A stretch of 64,000 nt of DNA from NCBI GenBank assembly GCA_963831295.1, contig CAWHPR010000002.1:236881-300880 (forward strand). Reading direction: 5' to 3'. Below are positions 1 through 8,247 of this stretch, piece after piece. How positions within the stretch are numbered: the stretch's first letter is position 1; each line of letters begins with the position of its first letter. This DNA comes from an uncultured Thermoleophilia bacterium. GTDB lineage: Bacteria > Actinomycetota > Thermoleophilia > UBA2241. A model generated the notes under the pieces. It saw only the letters and a program-made list of their open reading frames with translations, had not been told where the DNA came from and made no database searches. The position numbers were made by a program, and so were the translations under genes.

Positions 1-349
1 GCTCCACGCGGCGCGCCAGTGAGGCCTCGCTCACGAGGCACTCGCGCGCCGCGGAACCACCCAGGAGGTAGACGGACGGTGAGTCCGGCGGCCGCCGCCG
101 GTTGTGACCGACCGTCCACGACACGTAGACCCAGTCGTCGCCCTCCTTGCGCAGCCAGTACTCCAGCGGCACGGCGGTCCAGGCGCCGCTCGCGACGCAA
201 GCCTGGATGCCGAGGAGCGCCGGCACCAGCAGCAGCGCCGCGATGAGCATCGCGATCGGGGTGTTCGCGGCGAGGCCGCGGAGGAAGCTCGCGCGGCGAC
301 CGCCGCGCGAGCTCGACGGGTCGAGCTCCGGGAACCGGCCGACACCCAT
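1..349 (-). CDS. Secreted or membrane-anchored protein, N-terminal 116 codons only (gene runs off the left edge); possible DltD-like/SGNH-type partner of the Dlt-like module
   Basis: This open frame is absent from the ORF track because it has no stop inside the window. Its ATG (349-347) shares one base with the TGA of the upstream ligase gene (TGATG). My translation is MGVGRFPELDPSSSRGGRRASFLRGLAANTPIAMLIAALLLVPALLGIQACVASGAWTAVPLEYWLRKEGDDWVYVSWTVGHNRRRPPDSPSVYLLGGSAARECLVSEASLARRVE. It has one N-terminal hydrophobic helix followed by a soluble region. LLGGSAARE is loosely reminiscent of the DltD YGSSE block, so the family call is weak. Confidence 0.5.
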   Translation of the reverse strand, partial: MGVGRFPELDPSSSRGGRRASFLRGLAANTPIAMLIAALLLVPALLGIQACVASGAWTAVPLEYWLRKEGDDWVYVSWTVGHNRRRPPDSPSVYLLGGSAARECLVSEASLARRVE

Positions 350-1899
350 CAGCCGGACGCCTCGAGCAGTGCCTGGAGGTCGGCGCGGATCGCCTTGCCG
401 GACCCCGTGCGCGGGATCTCGGCGACCGCGACGATCCGACTCGGCAGCGAGCTCGCGGGCAGCAGTCCGCGCAGCTCGCGCAGGACGCGCGTCGCTTTGA
501 ACCCGGCAGGCTCGAGAGGCACCACGAAGGCGACGGGCACGTGCCCGAGGATCTCGTCGGGTGCCGCGATCACGGCGACGTCCGCGAAGCGGTCGAGCGC
601 TTGAAGCGCCTGCTGCACGTGGACGGTCGAGACCTTCTCGCCGCCTCTCTTGATGATGTCGTCCTTGCGGCCGGCGATCCAGACGAAGCCGTCCGCGTCG
701 ACGTGACCGAAGTCGCCGGTGCGCAAGCCGTGCCCGGTCAGGGTGCGAGCGTTGATCTCGGGCTCGCCGAGGTAGCCCTGCATGACGAGCGAGCCCGTTA
801 CGTACAGCTCGCCAGTCTCGCCGGGCGGCAGCACGCCGCCGTCGCCGTCACGTGCCAGCACCCGCATGTCGCCGATGGGCCTGCCGACGGAGCCGGCGCG
901 CGCGTCGAGCTCGGCCGGCGGCAGCACGCAGAGCCGGCCGCTGACCTCGGTCAGCCCGTACATGTTGAAGAGAGCGACTCCGGGGAGCCGGCGACGGAAG
1001 CGCTCGATCACCGGCAGCGCCAGATGGTCGCCCGAGCTCACCCAGAAGCGCAGCCCCGTGGTGCGCGGCTCTTCGAGCGGCTCGACGACCCGCACCAGGT
1101 GCGCGGGAGCCCCCCCGAACCCGGTGCAGCCCAGCCGTTCCATCTCGTCGAGCAGTTCCCCGCCGAAGTAGAAGCCGAGCTGGCCGGCCATGCCGCCGCC
1201 GTGCGCCATCACCGTGAGGAAGTGGCAGATGCCGCTCGTGAAGTACGGCGGCGTGTTGATGAAGATGCGGTCGTCGGCGCGCAGGCCCAGGGTCTGCGCC
1301 ACGTAGCCCGGGTTGCTCGAGAGCGCGCGCAGCGTCTGGCAGACCGCCTTGGGGACGCCGGTGGTGCCGGAGGTGAACATGAGCATGGCGAGGTCGTCGG
1401 GCGCGAGCGGCGCGACCTCGCCGTCGACTCGCGGCCCTCTCACGGGCCGGACCCCGGCCTCGGGCATGACGCCCGCCGGCGTCGCCCCGCCGACGAGGCC
1501 GGCCGCATCGACGCGCAGCGACACACGCGGCCGGTCCGCATCGGCCAGCGTCGCCTCGCCGGGCACGACGACCAGGTCGGGGGACGCCTTGACGAGCAGC
1601 CGGTCGATGTCGCCACGCGGCAGGCTCGTGTTGAGCGGGACGACCACGCCGCCCGCGAGCCAGACCCCGAGCATGGCCACGAAGAACTGGTCGTACTCCT
1701 CGAGGAAGAGGGCGGCGCGCCGCCCCGGCGCCAGCCCGGCGGCGCGCAGCGCCGCCGCGACGGCGCCGGCGCGGCGCACGAACTCCCCGTACGAGTAGAC
1801 GCGGTCCCGCGTCGTCAGAAGGAGGGCTTCGGGCCGCTGTTCGGCGTGCTGGGTCAGACGCGCGACGGCGTCGGTCATGAGGGCGGGCGTGACGATCAT
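349..1899 (-). CDS. AMP-dependent synthetase/ligase (adenylating enzyme; DltA-like by context)
   Basis: 516-aa ORF with AMP-binding core motifs FTSGTTGVPKAV and GDFGHVDADGFVWIAGRKDDIIKRGGEKVS. The ATG at 1899 lies 17 nt after the micro-ORF stop. Confidence 0.9.
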   Translation of the reverse strand: MIVTPALMTDAVARLTQHAEQRPEALLLTTRDRVYSYGEFVRRAGAVAAALRAAGLAPGRRAALFLEEYDQFFVAMLGVWLAGGVVVPLNTSLPRGDIDRLLVKASPDLVVVPGEATLADADRPRVSLRVDAAGLVGGATPAGVMPEAGVRPVRGPRVDGEVAPLAPDDLAMLMFTSGTTGVPKAVCQTLRALSSNPGYVAQTLGLRADDRIFINTPPYFTSGICHFLTVMAHGGGMAGQLGFYFGGELLDEMERLGCTGFGGAPAHLVRVVEPLEEPRTTGLRFWVSSGDHLALPVIERFRRRLPGVALFNMYGLTEVSGRLCVLPPAELDARAGSVGRPIGDMRVLARDGDGGVLPPGETGELYVTGSLVMQGYLGEPEINARTLTGHGLRTGDFGHVDADGFVWIAGRKDDIIKRGGEKVSTVHVQQALQALDRFADVAVIAAPDEILGHVPVAFVVPLEPAGFKATRVLRELRGLLPASSLPSRIVAVAEIPRTGSGKAIRADLQALLEASG

Positions 1900-1916
1900 C
1901 AGGCGCGACGGGCGGG

Positions 1917-2096
1917 TCAGAACCCCACGTAGCGGAACTCGGTGAGCTCACCACCGACGGCCACGGCCACGACGAGCGCGAGGAAGAGGAAGAACCAGAG
2001 CAGTGTCTGCACGCCTACGCCGAGGCCGAAGAAGAAGCGGTGGCCGGCCGGCGCGGCCGTCTCGCCGCTCGCGGCCTTGGGCCCAGCGCTCGTCAC
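1917..2096 (-). CDS. DltX-like small membrane protein (59 codons, below the ORF-track cutoff)
   Basis: My translation from GTG 2096 is VTSAGPKAASGETAAPAGHRFFFGLGVGVQTLLWFFLFLALVVAVAVGGELTEFRYVGF*. It has a single TM helix followed by a short tail ending in F-R-Y-V-G-F, which fits the F-x-Y-x-x-F extreme C-terminus I recall for DltX. It sits between a DltC-like carrier gene and the ligase. The start is uncertain: GGAGGA lies 15 nt upstream, and an internal GTG would give 31 aa. Confidence 0.55.
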   Translation of the reverse strand: MTSAGPKAASGETAAPAGHRFFFGLGVGVQTLLWFFLFLALVVAVAVGGELTEFRYVGF

Positions 2097-2168
2097 GACG
2101 ACCGTCGGCGATCCTCCGCGGCCGGCGCCGACGGGGTCTGCGCGACCCCGCTCCGCTGGCCCGCCGCC

Positions 2169-2420
2169 TCAGGCATCGGCAGCCTTCTTGCGCTCGATGT
2201 AGGCGAGCATGTGGTTCACGGTGTCGAGGTTCTCGTAGACGATGTCCATCGGCTTCACCTTGATGGCGAAGGTCTCCTCGAGGAAGACGATGAGGCTCGT
2301 CAGGTTCATGGAGTCGAGCAGCTGGTCGCGAAAGAGCGACGTGTCCAGATCGATGACGTCGCCGTCGTCAAGGTCGGCCTCTTCGTGCAGGAACTCGAGG
2401 ATTGTCTCGGCGTCGCTCAT
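2169..2420 (-). CDS. Acyl/D-alanyl carrier protein (DltC-like)
   Basis: 83 aa. The phosphopantetheine-attachment serine lies in DQLLDSMNLTSLIVFLEETF. Length and the motif surroundings resemble D-alanyl carrier proteins (GLLDSFGTVELL type). Confidence 0.85.
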   Translation of the reverse strand: MSDAETILEFLHEEADLDDGDVIDLDTSLFRDQLLDSMNLTSLIVFLEETFAIKVKPMDIVYENLDTVNHMLAYIERKKAADA

Positions 2421-2466
2421 GATGTGTCCTTCGCTGCTCGGATGGCGACGGGCGCGGCGCCCGCTC

Positions 2467-3153
2467 TCAGGCCCGCGTCCCCTGACTGTACGAGAACTTC
2501 ATGGGGTTGACGAACCCCGTGGCCTCGATGCCGGCCTGGATGATCTTCGCGAGCGTGAAGACGCGCTCCGCCGTCTGGCAGCCCTGCTCGATGCCCCACT
2601 CGTCGCTCAGGATGTGCCCCCGAGCGGCGGCCCAGCCGTAGGCGCCGAACTGGCAGGTGCCGTCGCCGTTGCCGACCACGAGGCAGCCGTTGCGCACGAA
2701 CGGGAGCCACGACGCGATGATGGTCGTCTCGGCGCCGCCGGAGCGACGCCCCGCGACGGCCATGACGCCCACCGGCTTGTTCGCCAGCGCGAAATCCTGG
2801 TGCCTCAGCGGCCGCGTCCGCATGATGAATTTGGCGAAGAGATCGGACGGCAGGCCGAAGTAGACAGGCGTCGCCATCAACAGACCGTCAGCGGCGACCA
2901 TCTTGTCGAGGACCATCTGCACGTCGTCCTCTTTGGCGCGCACGCAGGGGATGTACTCGCCGGTGTCCTTGGTCTTGCCGCAGACGTTGCAGGCCTTGCA
3001 CGGCTCGATGTGCAGGTCGCGGAGAGTGACGATCTCGGTCACTGCCTCGCCGGGGTACTTCTCGGCGAGACGCGTGGACGCCGCGTCGAGCATGATGCTG
3101 CTGTTGGACTTGTCACGCGGGCTGCAGTTCAGCCCAATGATCCGCACCGTCAT
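2467..3153 (-). CDS. Iron-sulfur flavoprotein / NADPH-dependent FMN reductase family
   Basis: The first 75 codons of the track ORF (2467..3378) read through the tRNA-Leu gene. The internal ATG at 3153 gives MTVRIIGLNCSPRDKSNS... (228 aa). It has a flavodoxin-like N-terminus plus the compact Cys cluster CKACNVCG-x11-C. Confidence 0.8.
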   Translation of the reverse strand: MTVRIIGLNCSPRDKSNSSIMLDAASTRLAEKYPGEAVTEIVTLRDLHIEPCKACNVCGKTKDTGEYIPCVRAKEDDVQMVLDKMVAADGLLMATPVYFGLPSDLFAKFIMRTRPLRHQDFALANKPVGVMAVAGRRSGGAETTIIASWLPFVRNGCLVVGNGDGTCQFGAYGWAAARGHILSDEWGIEQGCQTAERVFTLAKIIQAGIEATGFVNPMKFSYSQGTRA

Positions 3154-3334
3154 GTCTTCGCTCTCCTCGTGTGTGGCCGCGTCGGCCGGCGACGAAGCCG
3201 CTGCGCGCCGCAGACCCGTCACGAACGGTGTCCTATCGTACCAGAGTCCCCCGAGGTCGTCCGCCGTCGCAAGAGGCGATCCCGGGCCGCCGGCGACCGT
3301 AACTTCGCGGCGCCTCACCACGGCCGGGGTGAGT

Positions 3335-3421
3335 TGGTGCCGGAGGTGGGACTTGAACCCACATTCCTCTGCGGACACCGAATTTTGAGTCCAGCGCGTC
3401 TACCAGTTCCGCCACTCCGGC
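3335..3421 (-). tRNA. tRNA-Leu (anticodon CAA), CCA encoded
   Basis: The minus strand reads GCCGGAGTGGCGGAACTGGTAGACGCGCTGGACTCAAAATTCGGTGTCCGCAGAGGAATGTGGGTTCAAGTCCCACCTCCGGCACCA. It has a 7-bp acceptor stem, anticodon loop CTCAAAA, a long variable arm and a GTTCAAGTC T-loop. Confidence 0.95.
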
Positions 3422-3508
3422 ACGGCCGCCGCCTATCGTACCGCAGACCGCCGTCCGCGGGAGCCCCCGGCGCACCGTGCCGGCAGCGTGCGGACGGCGC
3501 CGGAAAGG

Positions 3509-3548
3509 GCGACGGGCGCGGCGCCCCGGGGGGCGCCGCGCCCGTCGC
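3509..3548 (-). terminator. Intrinsic-terminator-like hairpin after the Rpf-like gene
   Basis: Perfect 19-nt inverted repeat GCGACGGGCGCGGCGCCCC / GGGGCGCCGCGCCCGTCGC, 32 nt downstream of the stop at 3581. On the minus strand it is followed by CCTTTCC, a short and weak U tract. Confidence 0.5.
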
Positions 3549-3580
3549 GACTCCGAGACCGGCGCCGGCCGGCGGTCGTC

Positions 3581-4378
3581 TCAGAACGCGCGGGGATACG
3601 TGGAGGGCCACATGCTCGGGCCGTAGCCGCGCTTGATGGCGTACGCGGTCGCCCTGATCTGGGCCCATCCGTCGTAGACGCTGGCCCCGCGGAACGGGTT
3701 CCAGCTCGCCTGCCACGTGCTGGGAAGATACTGAAAGAGGCCCTTGTACGTGCTGCCGGCGAAGCGGCTCCCGCCCGACTCGTACAGCATCATGCGGTAC
3801 AGCCCCCCGGCGCTGATGCCGTTCGTGCGCGCCGCCAGCTCGATGAGCGGCCGCCACGCGCCGCGGCGCGCCCACTCGGCGATCCGCTCCCGCCGACGCA
3901 CGATGCGCGCGAGATCATCGACGCGCCGCCTCCAGCCACGGGTCGAGAGGCGCGTCTTCGCCACGCGGGCTTCGAGCGCCTCGACCTCGGCCAGAGTGGG
4001 CACGATCTCCGCAGTCACAGGGTCGGCCTCGACCGTCGGGTCGACTGCGGCCGTCGGGTCAGCTGCGTCAGTCGGGTCGACCGCGACCGTCGGGTCGACT
4101 GCGTCTGTCGGGTCGGTCGCGTCGGCATCCACCACGTCACCCTCGACCAGGTCGTCGATGGTGGCGACGCTGAAGACCGCGAGGATCACGCGAGCGGCGG
4201 CCAGGTTCTCGCGCGCCTTCGCCAGCCGAGCGCGCGAGTCGCGCAGCGCCCGCCGCGAGTTGCGCAGCTTGGCGCGCAGTTCGGGAGTCGTCGTCCGGGC
4301 GGAGGCCGGAGAAGCCGCCACTGCCGAGGCGACCAGGAGGAGAAGGATCATTCCGATCCATGCTTTGTGTCGTCGCAC
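3581..4378 (-). CDS. Secreted transglycosylase-like (Rpf-like) cell-wall protein with DPT hexapeptide repeats
   Basis: 265 aa. Signal peptide MILLLLVASAVAASPASA, then a coiled-coil-like basic region, six DPTxxx repeats, and a C-terminal YESGGSRFAGSTYKGLFQYLPSTWQASWNPF that resembles the transglycosylase-like/Rpf catalytic block (E...GLxQF...TW). Confidence 0.7.
   Translation of the reverse strand: MRRHKAWIGMILLLLVASAVAASPASARTTTPELRAKLRNSRRALRDSRARLAKARENLAAARVILAVFSVATIDDLVEGDVVDADATDPTDAVDPTVAVDPTDAADPTAAVDPTVEADPVTAEIVPTLAEVEALEARVAKTRLSTRGWRRRVDDLARIVRRRERIAEWARRGAWRPLIELAARTNGISAGGLYRMMLYESGGSRFAGSTYKGLFQYLPSTWQASWNPFRGASVYDGWAQIRATAYAIKRGYGPSMWPSTYPRAF
4020..4125. repeat. In-frame 18-nt tandem repeat (5-6 copies) encoding DPT(D/V/A)A(V/A)
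   Basis: TCGGGTC recurs at about 4036, 4054, 4072, 4090 and 4108, an exact 18-nt period. The protein reads DPTDAVDPTVAVDPTDAADPTAAVDPTVEADPVTAE. Confidence 0.75.
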
Positions 4379-4691
4379 GATACCCCTTCCACGGCGTGTC
4401 CCTGGGGCAGCGGTCTCACCTCTGCCCGCGGGCTGTCAGCGCCCAGGCCGCACCCAGCCCACACCGCAGGGCGTCAACGCAAAAGGGGGGACGAATCCGC
4501 AGAAGGGAGGGGCGCCGGGGCGCCTCTGTGTTGTAGATCCGGTGGCAGAGTCAACCACACGCCGCGCGACGATGCAACCCAAGCAGCCTGCCTAGCGCCC
4601 GCTGCGCGCTTGCGGCAAGCGGGTCCGTCGAGCACAATCTGACCGACCGTCCGCATGAGGTGGATGGCCGCGTCCGAGAAGGGAGCAGGCG

Positions 4692-5069
4692 ATGGCGCAG
4701 CAGCCGACGGGCGGGCGCGGCCACGTCGTCGACGAGGCGACGCGCGCCGAGCTCAAGCGCGTCGCCGTCCTCTTCATCGTCTCTTCGATCACCTTGCTTC
4801 TCTTCCTCGTCTACGTCCTCGCCGCGGGGCTCGGGGTGACGTTCATCCCGCCGATCGTCTGGGCGATGTGGGGCGCGTCGATGCTGTCGGGCTCCGTCGC
4901 GACGTGGGTCTATGGGACGTTCGTGACGATCCGGGCGCGCCGCTGGTACTGGGTCGCCCTCTGCGTCGTGCCGTTCACCGCCGTGCCCTGCTCCGTGGCC
5001 TACGCCTGGATACGCCGCGGCGAGATAGAGGTCGAGATCGCCGCGCCGCGCGAGCGCAGCGCTCACTAG
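4692..5069 (+). CDS. Hypothetical small integral membrane protein (about 4 TM)
   Basis: 125 aa. GAAGGGAG lies 7 nt upstream of the ATG. Hydrophobic segments VAVLFIVSSITLLLFLVYVLAAGLGV and WYWVALCVVPFTAVPCSVAYAW. The composition is protein-like, unlike the Arg-rich overlapping frame 4655. Confidence 0.6.
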   Translation: MAQQPTGGRGHVVDEATRAELKRVAVLFIVSSITLLLFLVYVLAAGLGVTFIPPIVWAMWGASMLSGSVATWVYGTFVTIRARRWYWVALCVVPFTAVPCSVAYAWIRRGEIEVEIAAPRERSAH

Positions 5070-5185
5070 CGGCGCCGAAGGGACGAAGCGAGCCCGCCGC
5101 GCCACCGCGCCCTGCTCGCACGGTTCGCCCGGACGGTTGTGGTAGTCTTGCCGCGGCCGCCAAGCGGAGGCACGGAGGACAGCCG

Positions 5186-6187
5186 ATCAAGAAGAGCCTG
5201 CGCCACGTCCTCGTCTTCCTCCTCATCGTCGTCGCCCTCTACCTGCTCCTCCCCCGGCTCGTCGATGCGGAGCGGACTTTCGAGTTGTTCAGCGAGGCGA
5301 ACTACTGGCTGCTCGGCCTCGCCGTCGTGCTCGAGTGCGCCGCGCTCGTCGGGTACGCCAACCTGACGCGCTTCGTGCTGCGCGTGCTCGACATCCGCTT
5401 GCGCCTGCTCGAAGTCTTCTCGGTCACGCTCGGCAGTCTCGCGGTGAGCCACTTCCTCTCCGCAGGGGGCGTCGGCGGCTGGGTCCTGACCTACAACGCG
5501 CTGCGCAAGCGCGACGTGCCGCACGGCCTCATCTTCGTGGCCATCGCGGCGCAGCAGTTCTTCAACTACATCGTCCTCTGGTCCGTCTTCGCGATCGCCC
5601 TCGTCTACCTCGTGCTGGAGCGTGGGGAGTCCCTGTGGCAGTACGCGATCGGTGTCGTGCTCATCCTGCTGCTGCTTTGGCTCACCGGGTACGGGGTCTA
5701 CCTCTACAACCACCGCACCCTCATGCGCCGCCGCAGCGGTCAGGCGGCGCACATCATCAACCGCGCGGCGCGGCGCGAACTCGTCCACGAAAAGCACGTG
5801 GACGCCTGGCTCGACAACCTCTTCTCCGGCATGCGCCGCATGACGTCGCACCGCGGCGCGTTCAGGCGCACGTTGCTCTACGCCTGCGCGTACTGGTTCT
5901 TCGACGTGCTGGCCCTCGCCGCCACGTTCCTCGCCTTCGGCGCGGACGTGCCGTGGACGGCGCTCGGCATCGCGTACGTGGTGGCCTACTCCGTCGGGAC
6001 GCTGGCGCCGACGCCGGGTGGCCTCGGCGCGGTCGAGGCCCTCATGATCGCCCTCTTCGTCAGCTTCGGCGTGCCGTCGGCCACCGCCGTCGCGGTCGTC
6101 CTCGTCTACCGCGTCATCAACTTCTGGCTGCCGATCCCGCCCGGACTCGTCATGTACGCGACGATCCGGCGAGCCAATACACCTTGA
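5186..6187 (+). CDS. Lysylphosphatidylglycerol-synthase-TM-region / UPF0104 (flippase-like) membrane protein
   Basis: The C-terminal 333 codons of track ORF 4655..6187 (KKSLRHVLVFLLIVVALYLLLPRLVDAE...LAPTPGGLGAVEALMIALF) form a typical polytopic UPF0104 pattern. The preceding 177 codons are Arg-rich off-frame-type sequence overlapping ORF 4692..5069. No ATG, GTG or TTG occurs between 5069 and the first TM helix. An in-frame ATC at 5186 sits 6 nt after GGAGGA, so the start is uncertain. Confidence 0.7.
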   Translation: MKKSLRHVLVFLLIVVALYLLLPRLVDAERTFELFSEANYWLLGLAVVLECAALVGYANLTRFVLRVLDIRLRLLEVFSVTLGSLAVSHFLSAGGVGGWVLTYNALRKRDVPHGLIFVAIAAQQFFNYIVLWSVFAIALVYLVLERGESLWQYAIGVVLILLLLWLTGYGVYLYNHRTLMRRRSGQAAHIINRAARRELVHEKHVDAWLDNLFSGMRRMTSHRGAFRRTLLYACAYWFFDVLALAATFLAFGADVPWTALGIAYVVAYSVGTLAPTPGGLGAVEALMIALFVSFGVPSATAVAVVLVYRVINFWLPIPPGLVMYATIRRANTP

Positions 6188-7850
6188 TCACAGGGCCCTG
6201 CTCACCGGCGCGCGGGCGGAAGACCTTGACGAGATCGCCGCGCCGTTCGAGCGCCGCGTAGAAGGCGATCATCCGCGGGTAGTGCTCAGGCGCCGCAAGC
6301 ACGCGGTCGTACACCGCCGAGCTCAGGATGACGTACTCGACCCCGTGGTCCCTCAGCCAGCGCACCGTGCGCTGCTCCTGCGGCTCGCCGGGCAGCGGCA
6401 GCCTGAGGCGGCGCAGCCGGTAGTAGGTGGGGCGCAGGCCGGCCGCGCGATAGAAGGGGAGTTCGACCCGCTGCACCAGCGGGGGCCCCAGGGTCTCGCT
6501 CGCGATCGTCGTATCGGGCTCGATGGTGCGCTCGACCCACGCTTTGGCGCGCTCGCGTACATCGGGATCCGACAGGCTTCGATTGCGGGCGATCGAGTCG
6601 GCGAGCGGCAGCACGACCGCCGCGGCGGCGAGCACGGCGACGCCCGGCACGAGCGCCCTGCGCCACGCCGGGCGCAAGCCCCGGCTCTCGACGCAGAGCC
6701 GCGCCGCCAGCACCAACAGGAGCGGCACGACCGGCAACATGTAGCGGTCGGCGAGCTCCTGCCACGAGCTCACGTAGAGGAAGTAGGCGACGGTGACGGG
6801 CGCGAGCATGAGGTCGAGCGGCGAGCGGCGCCAGAGCGCCAGCCCAAGGCCGGCGATCCCGAGCCCCAGCAGCACGAGCCCGAGCGCCCCGGCCAGATTG
6901 ACCTCGAGGTTGTACCAGTAGCCGTTGCCCACATTCTCGAAGCCGAGCCAGCCGCGACGCACGATCGCGTGCTGCCGCGAGAACTCGTCGAGGAAGCGAG
7001 GCAGGTCGAGCACGATGAAGGGCGACGCCAGCAGGAAGGCGAGGGCGAGGGGCGCATAGACGCGCGTGGCCAGCAGACGCGCCCATGTGAGGACGACCGA
7101 ACGGCCGGCGGCGACGGCGGCGGCCACCGCCGGCCGGCCCGCGTAGAGGGCGGCGACCGTAGCGGGCGCGAGGAGCACACCGAGGTTGTACTTGGTCGAG
7201 ACGGCGAGCCCCACGACGACCGCGCCCGCGGTCAGCCAGCGAAGCCCGCGGCCGAGCGCCGCCCTGGTCAGAAAGAGAAGCCCAAGCAGGCCCAGGGTCA
7301 CGGCCGGCACGTCGGTGACGGCGAGGTGCGAGTACTGGACGTGCAGTGGCACGACGGCCAGGAACGCGGCGGCAAGCACACCGCTCCACACGCCGTAGGC
7401 CTCGCGCGCGATACGGTAGACGAGATACACGGCAGCGACGCCGAACGCGACCACGACGAGGCGTCCGATCAGGTAGTACGCGCCCGCGTCCACCACGAAG
7501 GCGCCGGCCCGCACGAGCGGCTCCCCGTGGGTCAGGTCCCAGAACGGCGAGACGATCCAGAAGACGGCCGCCAGCAGGTAGAAGAAGAACGAGGGGTAGT
7601 AGAAGAACATCGGGTTCAACTGCCCGCGCGCCACCTCGTACGCCTTGGAGACGACCGTCGCCTCGTCAGGATCGGTGAAGACGTACGGCAGACCCGAAGT
7701 GACGCTCTGGAGACGCAGGGCGACCGCCAGACCCAGCACGAGGGCGAGCGCCGCCCCCGCCCAGCCGGTCCGCCGCCAGAGCCTGACCGTCACGACGCGC
7801 ACGCTCCTCCAGAGTCCCAGAACGTCCATGCTCACTCCACTGGTACCCAT
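6150..7850 (-). CDS. Membrane glycosyltransferase, GT-C fold (family 39 / ArnT-PMT-like)
   Basis: Polytopic protein with LRLQSVTSGLPYVFTDPDEATVVSKAYEV...NPMFFYYPSFFFYLL and a C-terminal soluble domain. The track ORF N-terminus (to 8036) overlaps hisI. Internal ATGs at 7850 or 7829 are the likely start. Confidence 0.8.
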   Translation of the reverse strand: MGTSGVSMDVLGLWRSVRVVTVRLWRRTGWAGAALALVLGLAVALRLQSVTSGLPYVFTDPDEATVVSKAYEVARGQLNPMFFYYPSFFFYLLAAVFWIVSPFWDLTHGEPLVRAGAFVVDAGAYYLIGRLVVVAFGVAAVYLVYRIAREAYGVWSGVLAAAFLAVVPLHVQYSHLAVTDVPAVTLGLLGLLFLTRAALGRGLRWLTAGAVVVGLAVSTKYNLGVLLAPATVAALYAGRPAVAAAVAAGRSVVLTWARLLATRVYAPLALAFLLASPFIVLDLPRFLDEFSRQHAIVRRGWLGFENVGNGYWYNLEVNLAGALGLVLLGLGIAGLGLALWRRSPLDLMLAPVTVAYFLYVSSWQELADRYMLPVVPLLLVLAARLCVESRGLRPAWRRALVPGVAVLAAAAVVLPLADSIARNRSLSDPDVRERAKAWVERTIEPDTTIASETLGPPLVQRVELPFYRAAGLRPTYYRLRRLRLPLPGEPQEQRTVRWLRDHGVEYVILSSAVYDRVLAAPEHYPRMIAFYAALERRGDLVKVFRPRAGEQGPVIKVYWLAGSSRT

Positions 7851-7941
7851 CACGGACGTGCGTGCCACATGGCACGGCAGGCGCCGAGGCCCGGCGCCTG
7901 CGGAGCGCCACGTCTCCGAGGGCTGTGCGGTCGGGCGGGCG

Positions 7942-8247
7942 CTACGGCTGAAGCTCGAGGTGCGCCGCGCCGTTGGCCTCGTCGCGGAAGCAGGTGACGG
8001 CCCCCGTGTGACAGGCAGGCCCCGCGGGGTCGACACTCATGAGCACGGTGTCGCAGTCGCAGTCGAGGCGGAGGGAGTGCACGCGCTGCACGTTGCCGCT
8101 GGTGGCGCCCTTGTGCCACAGCTCCCTGCGCCGCCGGCTCCAGAAATGGGCCTCACCGATGACGACGGTCGCCTCGAGCGCCTCGGCGTTGGCGTAGGCC
8201 ACCATGAGGACCTCGCCCGTCTTCGCGTCCTGCACGACGCAGGGCAC
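7942..8247 (-). CDS. hisI: Phosphoribosyl-AMP cyclohydrolase
   Basis: [25 protein letters not shown]...[13 protein letters not shown]...DCDCDTVL...GPACHTG matches HisI. The frame stays open upstream (…[11 protein letters not shown]) without a canonical start, so the true start is uncertain. Confidence 0.88.

Follow-up and report, generated by a model that had tools for sequence, protein, structure and literature searches.

A Dlt-like operon of uncultured Thermoleophilia with a probable tyrosine acyl-shuttle micro-protein encoded beside a carrier protein, an MBOAT and SGNH transferases

The operon described here probably encodes a carrier-fed MBOAT-SGNH system that acylates an extracytoplasmic envelope polymer in a Dlt-like manner, with a separate micro-protein as the tyrosine acyl shuttle; we put the probability of this reading at about 0.75. 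Its 5' half lies at one end of a 64-kb stretch of DNA (the window; 71% G+C) from contig CAWHPR010000002.1 of an uncultured Thermoleophilia bacterium, where five closely packed genes are read on the minus strand from position 3150 to 1; relatives indicate that the full operon holds six to nine genes. In the Dlt system, the micro-protein DltX bears a C-terminal F-x-Y-x-x-F motif whose tyrosine relays the acyl group, and in PatA the same motif is fused to the MBOAT protein (PMC12148441). The original prediction for this DNA had named the DltX motif and the tyrosine relay, correctly according to that paper. The authors of the Dlt and PatAB mechanisms describe MBOAT pathways other than Dlt as having neither a carrier protein nor a DltX-like micro-protein (PMC12148441, 2025). 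What the data show are the genes, their conservation and co-occurrence, their family and fold assignments and the selection acting on the micro-protein.

The micro-open reading frame (micro-ORF) spans 1917..2096 on the minus strand, starts with GTG and encodes 59 aa, with a single hydrophobic stretch of ~20 residues (QTLLWFFLFLALVVAVAV) and the C-terminal end GGELTEFRYVGF, after which the stop codon follows. The single transmembrane (TM) helix and the FRYVGF end had both been pointed out in the original prediction, and the order, coordinates and strand that it gave for the carrier gene, the micro-ORF, the ligase gene and the ORF cut by the window edge were likewise recovered from the sequence. 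The motif, F54-R-Y56-V-G-F59, lies at 1937..1920 of the minus strand, with the codon of the putative acyl-accepting Tyr56 at 1931..1929. The window has 871 stop-to-stop frames of 30 codons or more, of which the micro-ORF alone ends in F-x-Y-x-x-F, as compared with 0.001 expected from composition; the match is not due to chance. Members of the family begin with a variable tail rich in Ala, Gly, Pro and Glu; basic residues come next, followed by the single hydrophobic helix (consensus YGLGLSLQTLLWFLLFLAIxVAV), an acidic linker of 6 residues and finally the motif, and the positive-inside rule would place the C-terminus outside the cell.

A scan of one genome per species yielded 79 related loci. 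Orthologs of the window ligase number in the hundreds; they are 66-81% identical to it and come exclusively from uncultured Thermoleophilia or Actinomycetota. By tblastn, the micro-ORF was detected in 75 of 76 related loci, ending in LTEFRYVGF in 72 and in FRYVRF in 3; in the single exception, the stop is read through in a visibly broken assembly. Every codon of LTEFRYVGF varies synonymously with the peptide fixed, Arg being written by six different codons, and the last 38 codons have a median ratio of non-synonymous to synonymous substitution rates (dN/dS) of 0.25 at a dS of 0.6. Because the peptide is kept through synonymous changes and is present in nearly all loci, the micro-ORF is, on these comparisons, a real gene under purifying selection, which is the outcome for which the original prediction had proposed a check. 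A phmmer search of 1.84 billion cluster-representative proteins returned 44 matches to the micro-protein, nearly all of them small (51-103 aa); nearly all of the small ones aligned to the last residue and ended in (T/S)(E/D/Q)F(R/H)YV(G/R)(F/Y). At 50% identity there are ~40 clusters, all with the C-terminal motif; its tyrosine is invariant in more than 110 micro-protein sequences, and the last nine residues are the most conserved part. The micro-proteins checked in public records are all named 'hypothetical protein'.

The partners of the micro-ORF are as constant as the gene itself. We took a locus as complete where the sequence extended from the ligase gene for at least 5 kb on its downstream side and 1.5 kb on its upstream side, which 51 loci did; the micro-ORF, the carrier gene and an MBOAT gene were each present in 51/51, the flavoprotein gene directly upstream of the carrier in 50/51, and a gene for an SGNH protein of the D1 or D2 subfamily, encoded before or after the MBOAT, respectively, in 49/51. 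Most often, the genes follow one another as flavoprotein, carrier, micro-ORF, ligase, D1 (one to three copies), MBOAT and D2; this order is altered in loci L059, L060 and L088, yet the gene set stays together. In L059 (6473-6790) and L060 (5466-5792), the micro-ORF lies ahead of the flavoprotein gene instead of between carrier and ligase, and its stop is TAG, not TGA. An MBOAT gene near the locus had been set beforehand as a test. A tblastn search of the 64 kb found none in the window, as the original prediction had also seen, and one lies one to three genes downstream of the ligase in all 51 related loci with at least 5 kb there. On two long contigs (L001 and L002) with the same upstream neighbours as the window (PRA-CH, a PMT_2 glycosyltransferase and LPG_synthase_TM), the operon continues with a 381-aa protein of no Pfam family, a 414-aa MBOAT and one to four further paralogs of the 381-aa protein. 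The module is near-universal in the class Thermoleophilia and syntenic with housekeeping genes.

The module MBOAT of the relatives carries the PF03062 annotation. A profile of 23 sequences matched DltB only in the PDB (6bug and 8jem; E 3e-38), over nearly the full length, and the only NCBIfam match was LTA_dltB (TIGR04091), at 167 bits as compared with a cutoff of 375. Two histidines, H282 and H319, do not vary among the relatives; they belong to the motifs WHxSLS and GxWH. By these measures, the protein is DltB-like and not an equivalog of DltB. None of the 57 module MBOATs examined ends in F-x-Y-x-x-[FY], and the presence of the motif on a separate micro-protein where the MBOAT is without it follows the logic of Dlt (PMC12148441). 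One locus of Thermoleophilia UBA6103 (L064:3433-6408, plus strand) has a separate 512-aa MBOAT beside the module, which ends in FLYFQF at its stop codon and follows a 428-aa protein with GSS...DGYH. This pair is a fused arrangement of the PatA/AlgI type, distinct from the module and found in the same lineage.

In form, the micro-protein agrees with DltX, being a small single-pass protein whose last six residues read F-x-Y-x-x-F in the window and in 75/76 loci, and so it does in context, since it stands with a carrier, a ligase, a motif-less MBOAT and an SGNH partner in 51/51 complete related loci. Pfam and NCBIfam scans of the micro-protein gave no family match, and the Pfam DltX model (PF12459) did not match the window micro-ORF or five relatives at E<=10; as a control, two real DltX proteins scored 57 bits with it (E about 1e-15). 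In the reverse direction, a profile of 97 micro-proteins scored about 0 bits against DltX, no better than shuffles. With ~40 residues to compare, homology and convergence cannot be told apart by sequence.

This lack of detectable DltX homology would suit a reading in which an MBOAT and SGNH proteins do carry out acylation and the micro-protein is merely a structural or assembly subunit, with a tyrosine that carries no acyl group; it could also be said that acylation of the tyrosine is argued purely by analogy. We consider this reading unlikely. The last nine residues are the very part that is most conserved, with a tyrosine that does not vary, and the motif closes the protein, as it does in DltX and PatA. 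In addition, the partner MBOAT is motif-less in 57/57 cases, and the carrier-less MBOAT of the same lineage has the motif fused to it.

The DltD-like partner that the original prediction guessed in the cut ORF is supported by both signature and fold. This gene, D1, occupies 1..349 on the minus strand; its ATG at 349 overlaps the ligase TGA (TGATG), as the original prediction had described, and the N-terminal 116 aa lie in the window. Positive charges mark the N-terminus of the fragment, and a TM segment comes next; the fragment runs off the window and is 70% identical to a full-length 381-aa protein of L001. Relatives were gathered by profile search, as the 116-aa partial query had returned only two fragments. 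Throughout the D1/D2 family, G97-G98-S99, D339 and H342 (D-x-x-H) and several Gly and Asn residues are invariant, and the putative nucleophile, Ser99 in GGS, has its codon inside the window (55..53). Pfam gave no match for the window fragment; across the family, it gave weak, sub-threshold matches to Lipase_GDSL_2 in 36/42 sequences and weak ones to DltD (PF04914) in 2/42 (best E 0.22). The family profile matched nothing significantly among PDB sequences, and hhalign comparison with three real DltD proteins was insignificant (E 0.23). An AlphaFold2 (AF2) model of D1 was obtained with a predicted local distance difference test score (pLDDT) of 86 and a predicted template modelling score (pTM) of 0.85; DltD entries (6o93, 6pfx, 7dxm and 3bma; E 1.7e-5 to 1.3e-3) take the first nine places among its PDB fold matches, and GDSL esterases and PatB come next. 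The model and the signature thus assign D1 and D2 a predicted SGNH fold that is most like DltD, and we claim no family membership. The two subfamilies are about 30% identical and occur as tandem or near-tandem copies, with one to five paralogs per locus; as many as five are found in L002 (11539-18294, plus strand), and expansions also in L007 and L069. Several transferase paralogs per locus suggest several acceptors or positions.

The stand-alone carrier protein (83 aa; 2169..2420, minus strand; Pfam PP-binding, E 3e-8) has its phosphopantetheine site at Ser37 in LLDSM (codon 2312..2310), invariant in 36 orthologs. The original prediction had called it DltC-like. The PP-binding domain, the LLDSM motif, which is that of Listeria and L. 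oris DltC, and the best NCBIfam model, DltC (NF003464 / TIGR01688), agree with that name, but the scores are below cutoff (35.8 as compared with 68 bits, and 23.8 as compared with 52), and with the family profile the type-II peptidyl carrier proteins PigG and PltL and ordinary acyl carrier proteins of the PDB rank above DltC. By sequence, it is therefore a generic type-II carrier with a DltC-like local motif only.

The ligase (516 aa; 349..1899, minus strand) is an AMP-forming enzyme of the ANL superfamily with Pfam AMP-binding and AMP-binding_C domains and its A10 lysine in PRTGSGK. It is 23-26% identical to three genuine DltA proteins from plasmid-borne dlt operons. An invariant block of the orthologs, PPYFTSGICHF, has Thr at the site where DltA (FDLS), nonribosomal peptide synthetase (NRPS) adenylation domains (FDVS) and 3wvn (WDFG) have the amino-binding Asp. 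Since Thr replaces the Asp that holds the substrate amino group, the substrate is probably a carboxylic acid without an alpha-amino group. The best PDB matches (3wvn, NRPS adenylation domains and FadD5) have similar scores. None of the NCBIfam models came near its cutoff, and DltA was absent from the 25 best matches; the best were the exosortase-A-associated acyl-CoA ligase (TIGR03098) and FadD-type models, at 230-265 bits as compared with cutoffs of 476-650. These matches would also suggest a non-amino carboxylic acid as substrate, although these scores are far below cutoff, NRPS-type enzymes score equally in the PDB and there is no exosortase context. The ligase is thus equally distant from NRPS-type adenylation enzymes and FadD-type ligases, and firm grouping with unrelated acyl-CoA synthetases, named in the original prediction as an adverse outcome, was not observed. 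Probably it loads the carrier protein.

The first gene of the module encodes a flavoprotein of the FMN_red family (227 aa; 2467..3150, minus strand; Pfam FMN_red, E 2e-22), whose best solved relative is PDB 7d38, 'Cd1' (E 2e-9). Its Cys motif, C52-x2-C55-x2-C58-x11-C70, is invariant in 66-67 of 67 orthologs, and these four Cys support the label of iron-sulphur (Fe-S) flavoprotein under which the original prediction had placed it directly upstream. It belongs to the module.

Comparison with DltXABCD of Bacillota reveals likeness in plan and difference in parts. Both have five matching roles in one operon, a stand-alone carrier protein that feeds the MBOAT, and an MBOAT with no F-x-Y-x-x-F end of its own, that of the module being closest to DltB. 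Both have a separate single-TM micro-protein with the F-x-Y-x-x-F end about 6-10 residues past the helix, and an SGNH partner with an N-terminal anchor and a Ser...D-x-x-H layout, for which DltD is the best fold match. In contrast, the module is found in the phylum Actinomycetota at 71% GC, its order is F-C-X-A-D-B-D as compared with X-A-B-C-D, and its ligase is not DltA-like. Its micro-protein is longer (59-114 aa), with the variable Ala/Gly/Pro/Glu-rich tail, and ends in FRYVGF where real DltX proteins end in FIYNEF directly before the stop; it has one to five SGNH paralogs as compared with one DltD, and the Fe-S flavoprotein as a constant member. Acetyl-CoA-dependent systems, PatA/PatB of peptidoglycan O-acetylation and those of the AlgI/AlgJ/AlgX type, also pair an MBOAT with an SGNH transferase outside the cytoplasm and have a tyrosine relay of the F-x-Y-x-x-F kind (PMC12148441), and PatB is among the weaker fold matches of the D1 model; unlike the module, they bear the motif at the C-terminus of their own MBOAT on two extra helices, use acyl-CoA and have no carrier, ligase or micro-protein.

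A true dlt ortholog with shuffled genes, which activates D-alanine and esterifies it to a teichoic-acid-like polymer, would account for the same five functional roles, the MBOAT closest to DltB, the LLDSM site of the carrier and the DltC model as its best match. We regard this as quite improbable. The match to DltB is partial, and the membership tests with the DltX profile, DltA, DltC and DltD failed: the DltB, DltC and DltD models are all below cutoff or without a score, DltA models are not among the best family matches of the ligase, and the micro-protein is not matched by Pfam DltX. Since DltX is undetected, the ligase has Thr for Asp and 23-26% identity to DltA, the gene order differs and a constant flavoprotein is added, the operon is, as judged from sequence, not an ortholog of dltXABCD. 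Of the Dlt-like acylation module that the original prediction had proposed, the roles, the MBOAT and the motif are therefore supported; a DltA-like ligase pocket and detectable DltX homology of the micro-protein are not.

The surroundings of the module in divergent genomes bear on another proposal, a secondary-metabolite cassette in which the small ORF encodes a precursor or leader peptide and the ligase, carrier and flavoprotein, with a radical-SAM protein in some loci, tailor a small molecule or peptide. A lower-GC (53%) relative (L088/L089:1-16234) has a B12-binding radical-SAM gene between carrier and micro-ORF, and its micro-protein ends in EFHYVGY; there the module lies within a polysaccharide cluster with UDP-glucose dehydrogenase, Wzy_C, Acyl_transf_3 (AT3), GT4 and Asn synthase genes, a single hint, from one divergent locus, that the acceptor is a surface glycan. 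The metabolite proposal could also draw on the adjacency of a small conserved peptide to ligase, carrier and flavoprotein, and on the best solved relatives of the ligase, which are NRPS-type adenylation enzymes. It is nevertheless very improbable: the peptide shows a TM helix and an N-terminus that varies, with no leader/core layout, a DltB-like MBOAT and DltD-like anchored SGNH proteins are constant partners, the flanks hold no constant gene for a protease, cyclase or exporter, and the module is near-universal in its class and syntenic with housekeeping genes. The flanking genes of four divergent loci are unrelated housekeeping genes that differ among the loci, which marks the module as a self-contained cassette; they include no acceptor-synthesis genes, so that these flanks say nothing about the acceptor.

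In ~60 of 70 related loci, the micro-protein gene opens with an ATG or GTG and shares 8 nt with the end of the carrier gene, stop codon included (ATGCCTGA), in a frame that differs from that of the carrier; its product is 61-114 aa long. The window departs from this arrangement. A start-codon survey and a DNA alignment with the closest relatives showed that the ancestral-type ATG (2176) and the first five codons (MPEAA) are kept and that this frame ends after 27 codons, as the remnant ORF MPEAAGQRSGVAQTPSAPAAEDRRRSS (2093..2176, minus strand), whose TGA overlaps the GTG of the micro-ORF at 2096 (GTGA). The conserved part of the window micro-ORF is in the same frame as the carrier gene, and by comparison with the relatives the window has a frameshift in the variable N-terminal tail. 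This may be a genuine indel within the hypervariable tail, translation then re-initiating at GTGA, or an assembly error, which is possible since several related long-read metagenome-assembled genomes (MAGs) carry indel-type breaks in other genes. In L010, L058, L073, L074, L076 and L078, mostly MAGs of the 'MFD' series, the ligase, MBOAT or micro-ORF is split over frames, which is consistent with indel errors, and frameshifts in this group need cautious reading. In both cases, the TM helix and the motif are preserved. The original prediction had remarked that the carrier TGA and the micro-ORF share a frame; this is true of the window but is an incidental by-product of the frameshift, as ~60/70 relatives use the other frame. 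Read-through of this TGA, fusing carrier to micro-protein, was considered and rejected, because the relatives use the other frame with an overlapping ATG.

That the micro-ORF encodes no functional protein, being a chance ORF or a translational-coupling spacer between carrier and ligase genes, might be argued from its short, GC-rich, GTG-started form in the window, its lack of a family match and its lost ancestral start, but the comparative data have already effectively refuted this, as the peptide is kept through synonymous changes, the stop position is fixed in 75/76 loci, the gene is retained where it has moved within the cluster (L059, L060 and L088) and the motif has a chance expectation of 0.001 per window.

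For the carrier-fed system with a tyrosine acyl shuttle, we propose a mechanism whose transfer order, tyrosine acylation, topology and nature of substrate and acceptor are modelled on Dlt and PatAB. The ANL ligase would adenylate a carboxylic acid, which probably has no alpha-amino group, and load it as a thioester on the phosphopantetheine at Ser37 of the carrier. The DltB-like MBOAT, with no tail of its own and its gene expected just past the window edge, would then carry the acyl group across the membrane and transfer it to Tyr56 of the micro-protein, the FRYVGF of which would lie outside the cell, a few residues beyond the single TM helix. From the acyl-tyrosine, the group would be given to the serine of a membrane-anchored DltD-like SGNH transferase (GGS...D-x-x-H), and the SGNH transferases would finally esterify one or more envelope polymer acceptors.

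Several points weigh against this reading. The MBOAT gene and most of the SGNH gene lie outside the window and are drawn from relatives whose proteins are 54-81% identical, and all members are known from their genes. The resemblance of the SGNH proteins to DltD is at the level of fold, with a modest TM-score of about 0.40 and an insignificant hhalign result, and that of the micro-protein to DltX does not extend detectably beyond the six-residue pattern, with either PF12459 or the reverse profile. The ligase could be a CoA ligase instead of a carrier-loading enzyme, and the loss of the ancestral micro-ORF start to the frameshift means that expression in the source genome is not assured. A more specific form of the proposal is, in our estimate, an even bet: the micro-protein would be a second family of stand-alone tyrosine acyl shuttles, possibly of independent origin, serving a carrier-fed MBOAT pathway other than D-alanylation, in which the flavoprotein would perhaps make or modify a non-amino acyl group that goes to one to five paralogous DltD-like transferases that decorate different envelope polymers.

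Directly upstream of the operon lies a tRNA-Leu gene (anticodon CAA; 3335-3421, minus strand), a probable marker of its 5' boundary. No promoter or terminator was found when 1..3600 was scanned, a result that is uninformative at 71% GC. A 265-aa ORF at 3581-4378 (minus strand) belongs to no Pfam family and encodes an N-terminal hydrophobic segment followed by DPT-x-A-x-type repeats (ATDPTDAVDPTVAVDPTDAADPTAAVDPTVEADP). At 4655-8247 are genes for an LPG_synthase_TM protein (plus strand), a PMT/PMT_2 GT-C glycosyltransferase (minus strand) and PRA-CH, in the same order in L001 and L002. These are envelope-related neighbours, and the synteny is limited to close relatives.

Our literature searches found no description of a dlt-like system in Actinobacteria, Actinomycetota or Thermoleophilia, although wider surveys may not have been covered, and searches for other micro-proteins of MBOAT systems found nothing relevant. 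In public records, the module proteins that were checked have generic or 'hypothetical protein' names only. The operon would be a counter-example to the statement that neither a carrier nor a DltX-like micro-protein occurs in MBOAT pathways outside Dlt (PMC12148441), and it offers a natural test of the generality of the acyl-tyrosine relay. A small TM protein ending in F-x-Y-x-x-F/Y beside a tail-less MBOAT provides a searchable signature for similar systems. The class of Actinomycetota in which the operon is widespread lives in soil and sediment, is mostly uncultured and is poorly known, and the operon points to an as yet uncharacterized envelope modification in Thermoleophilia.

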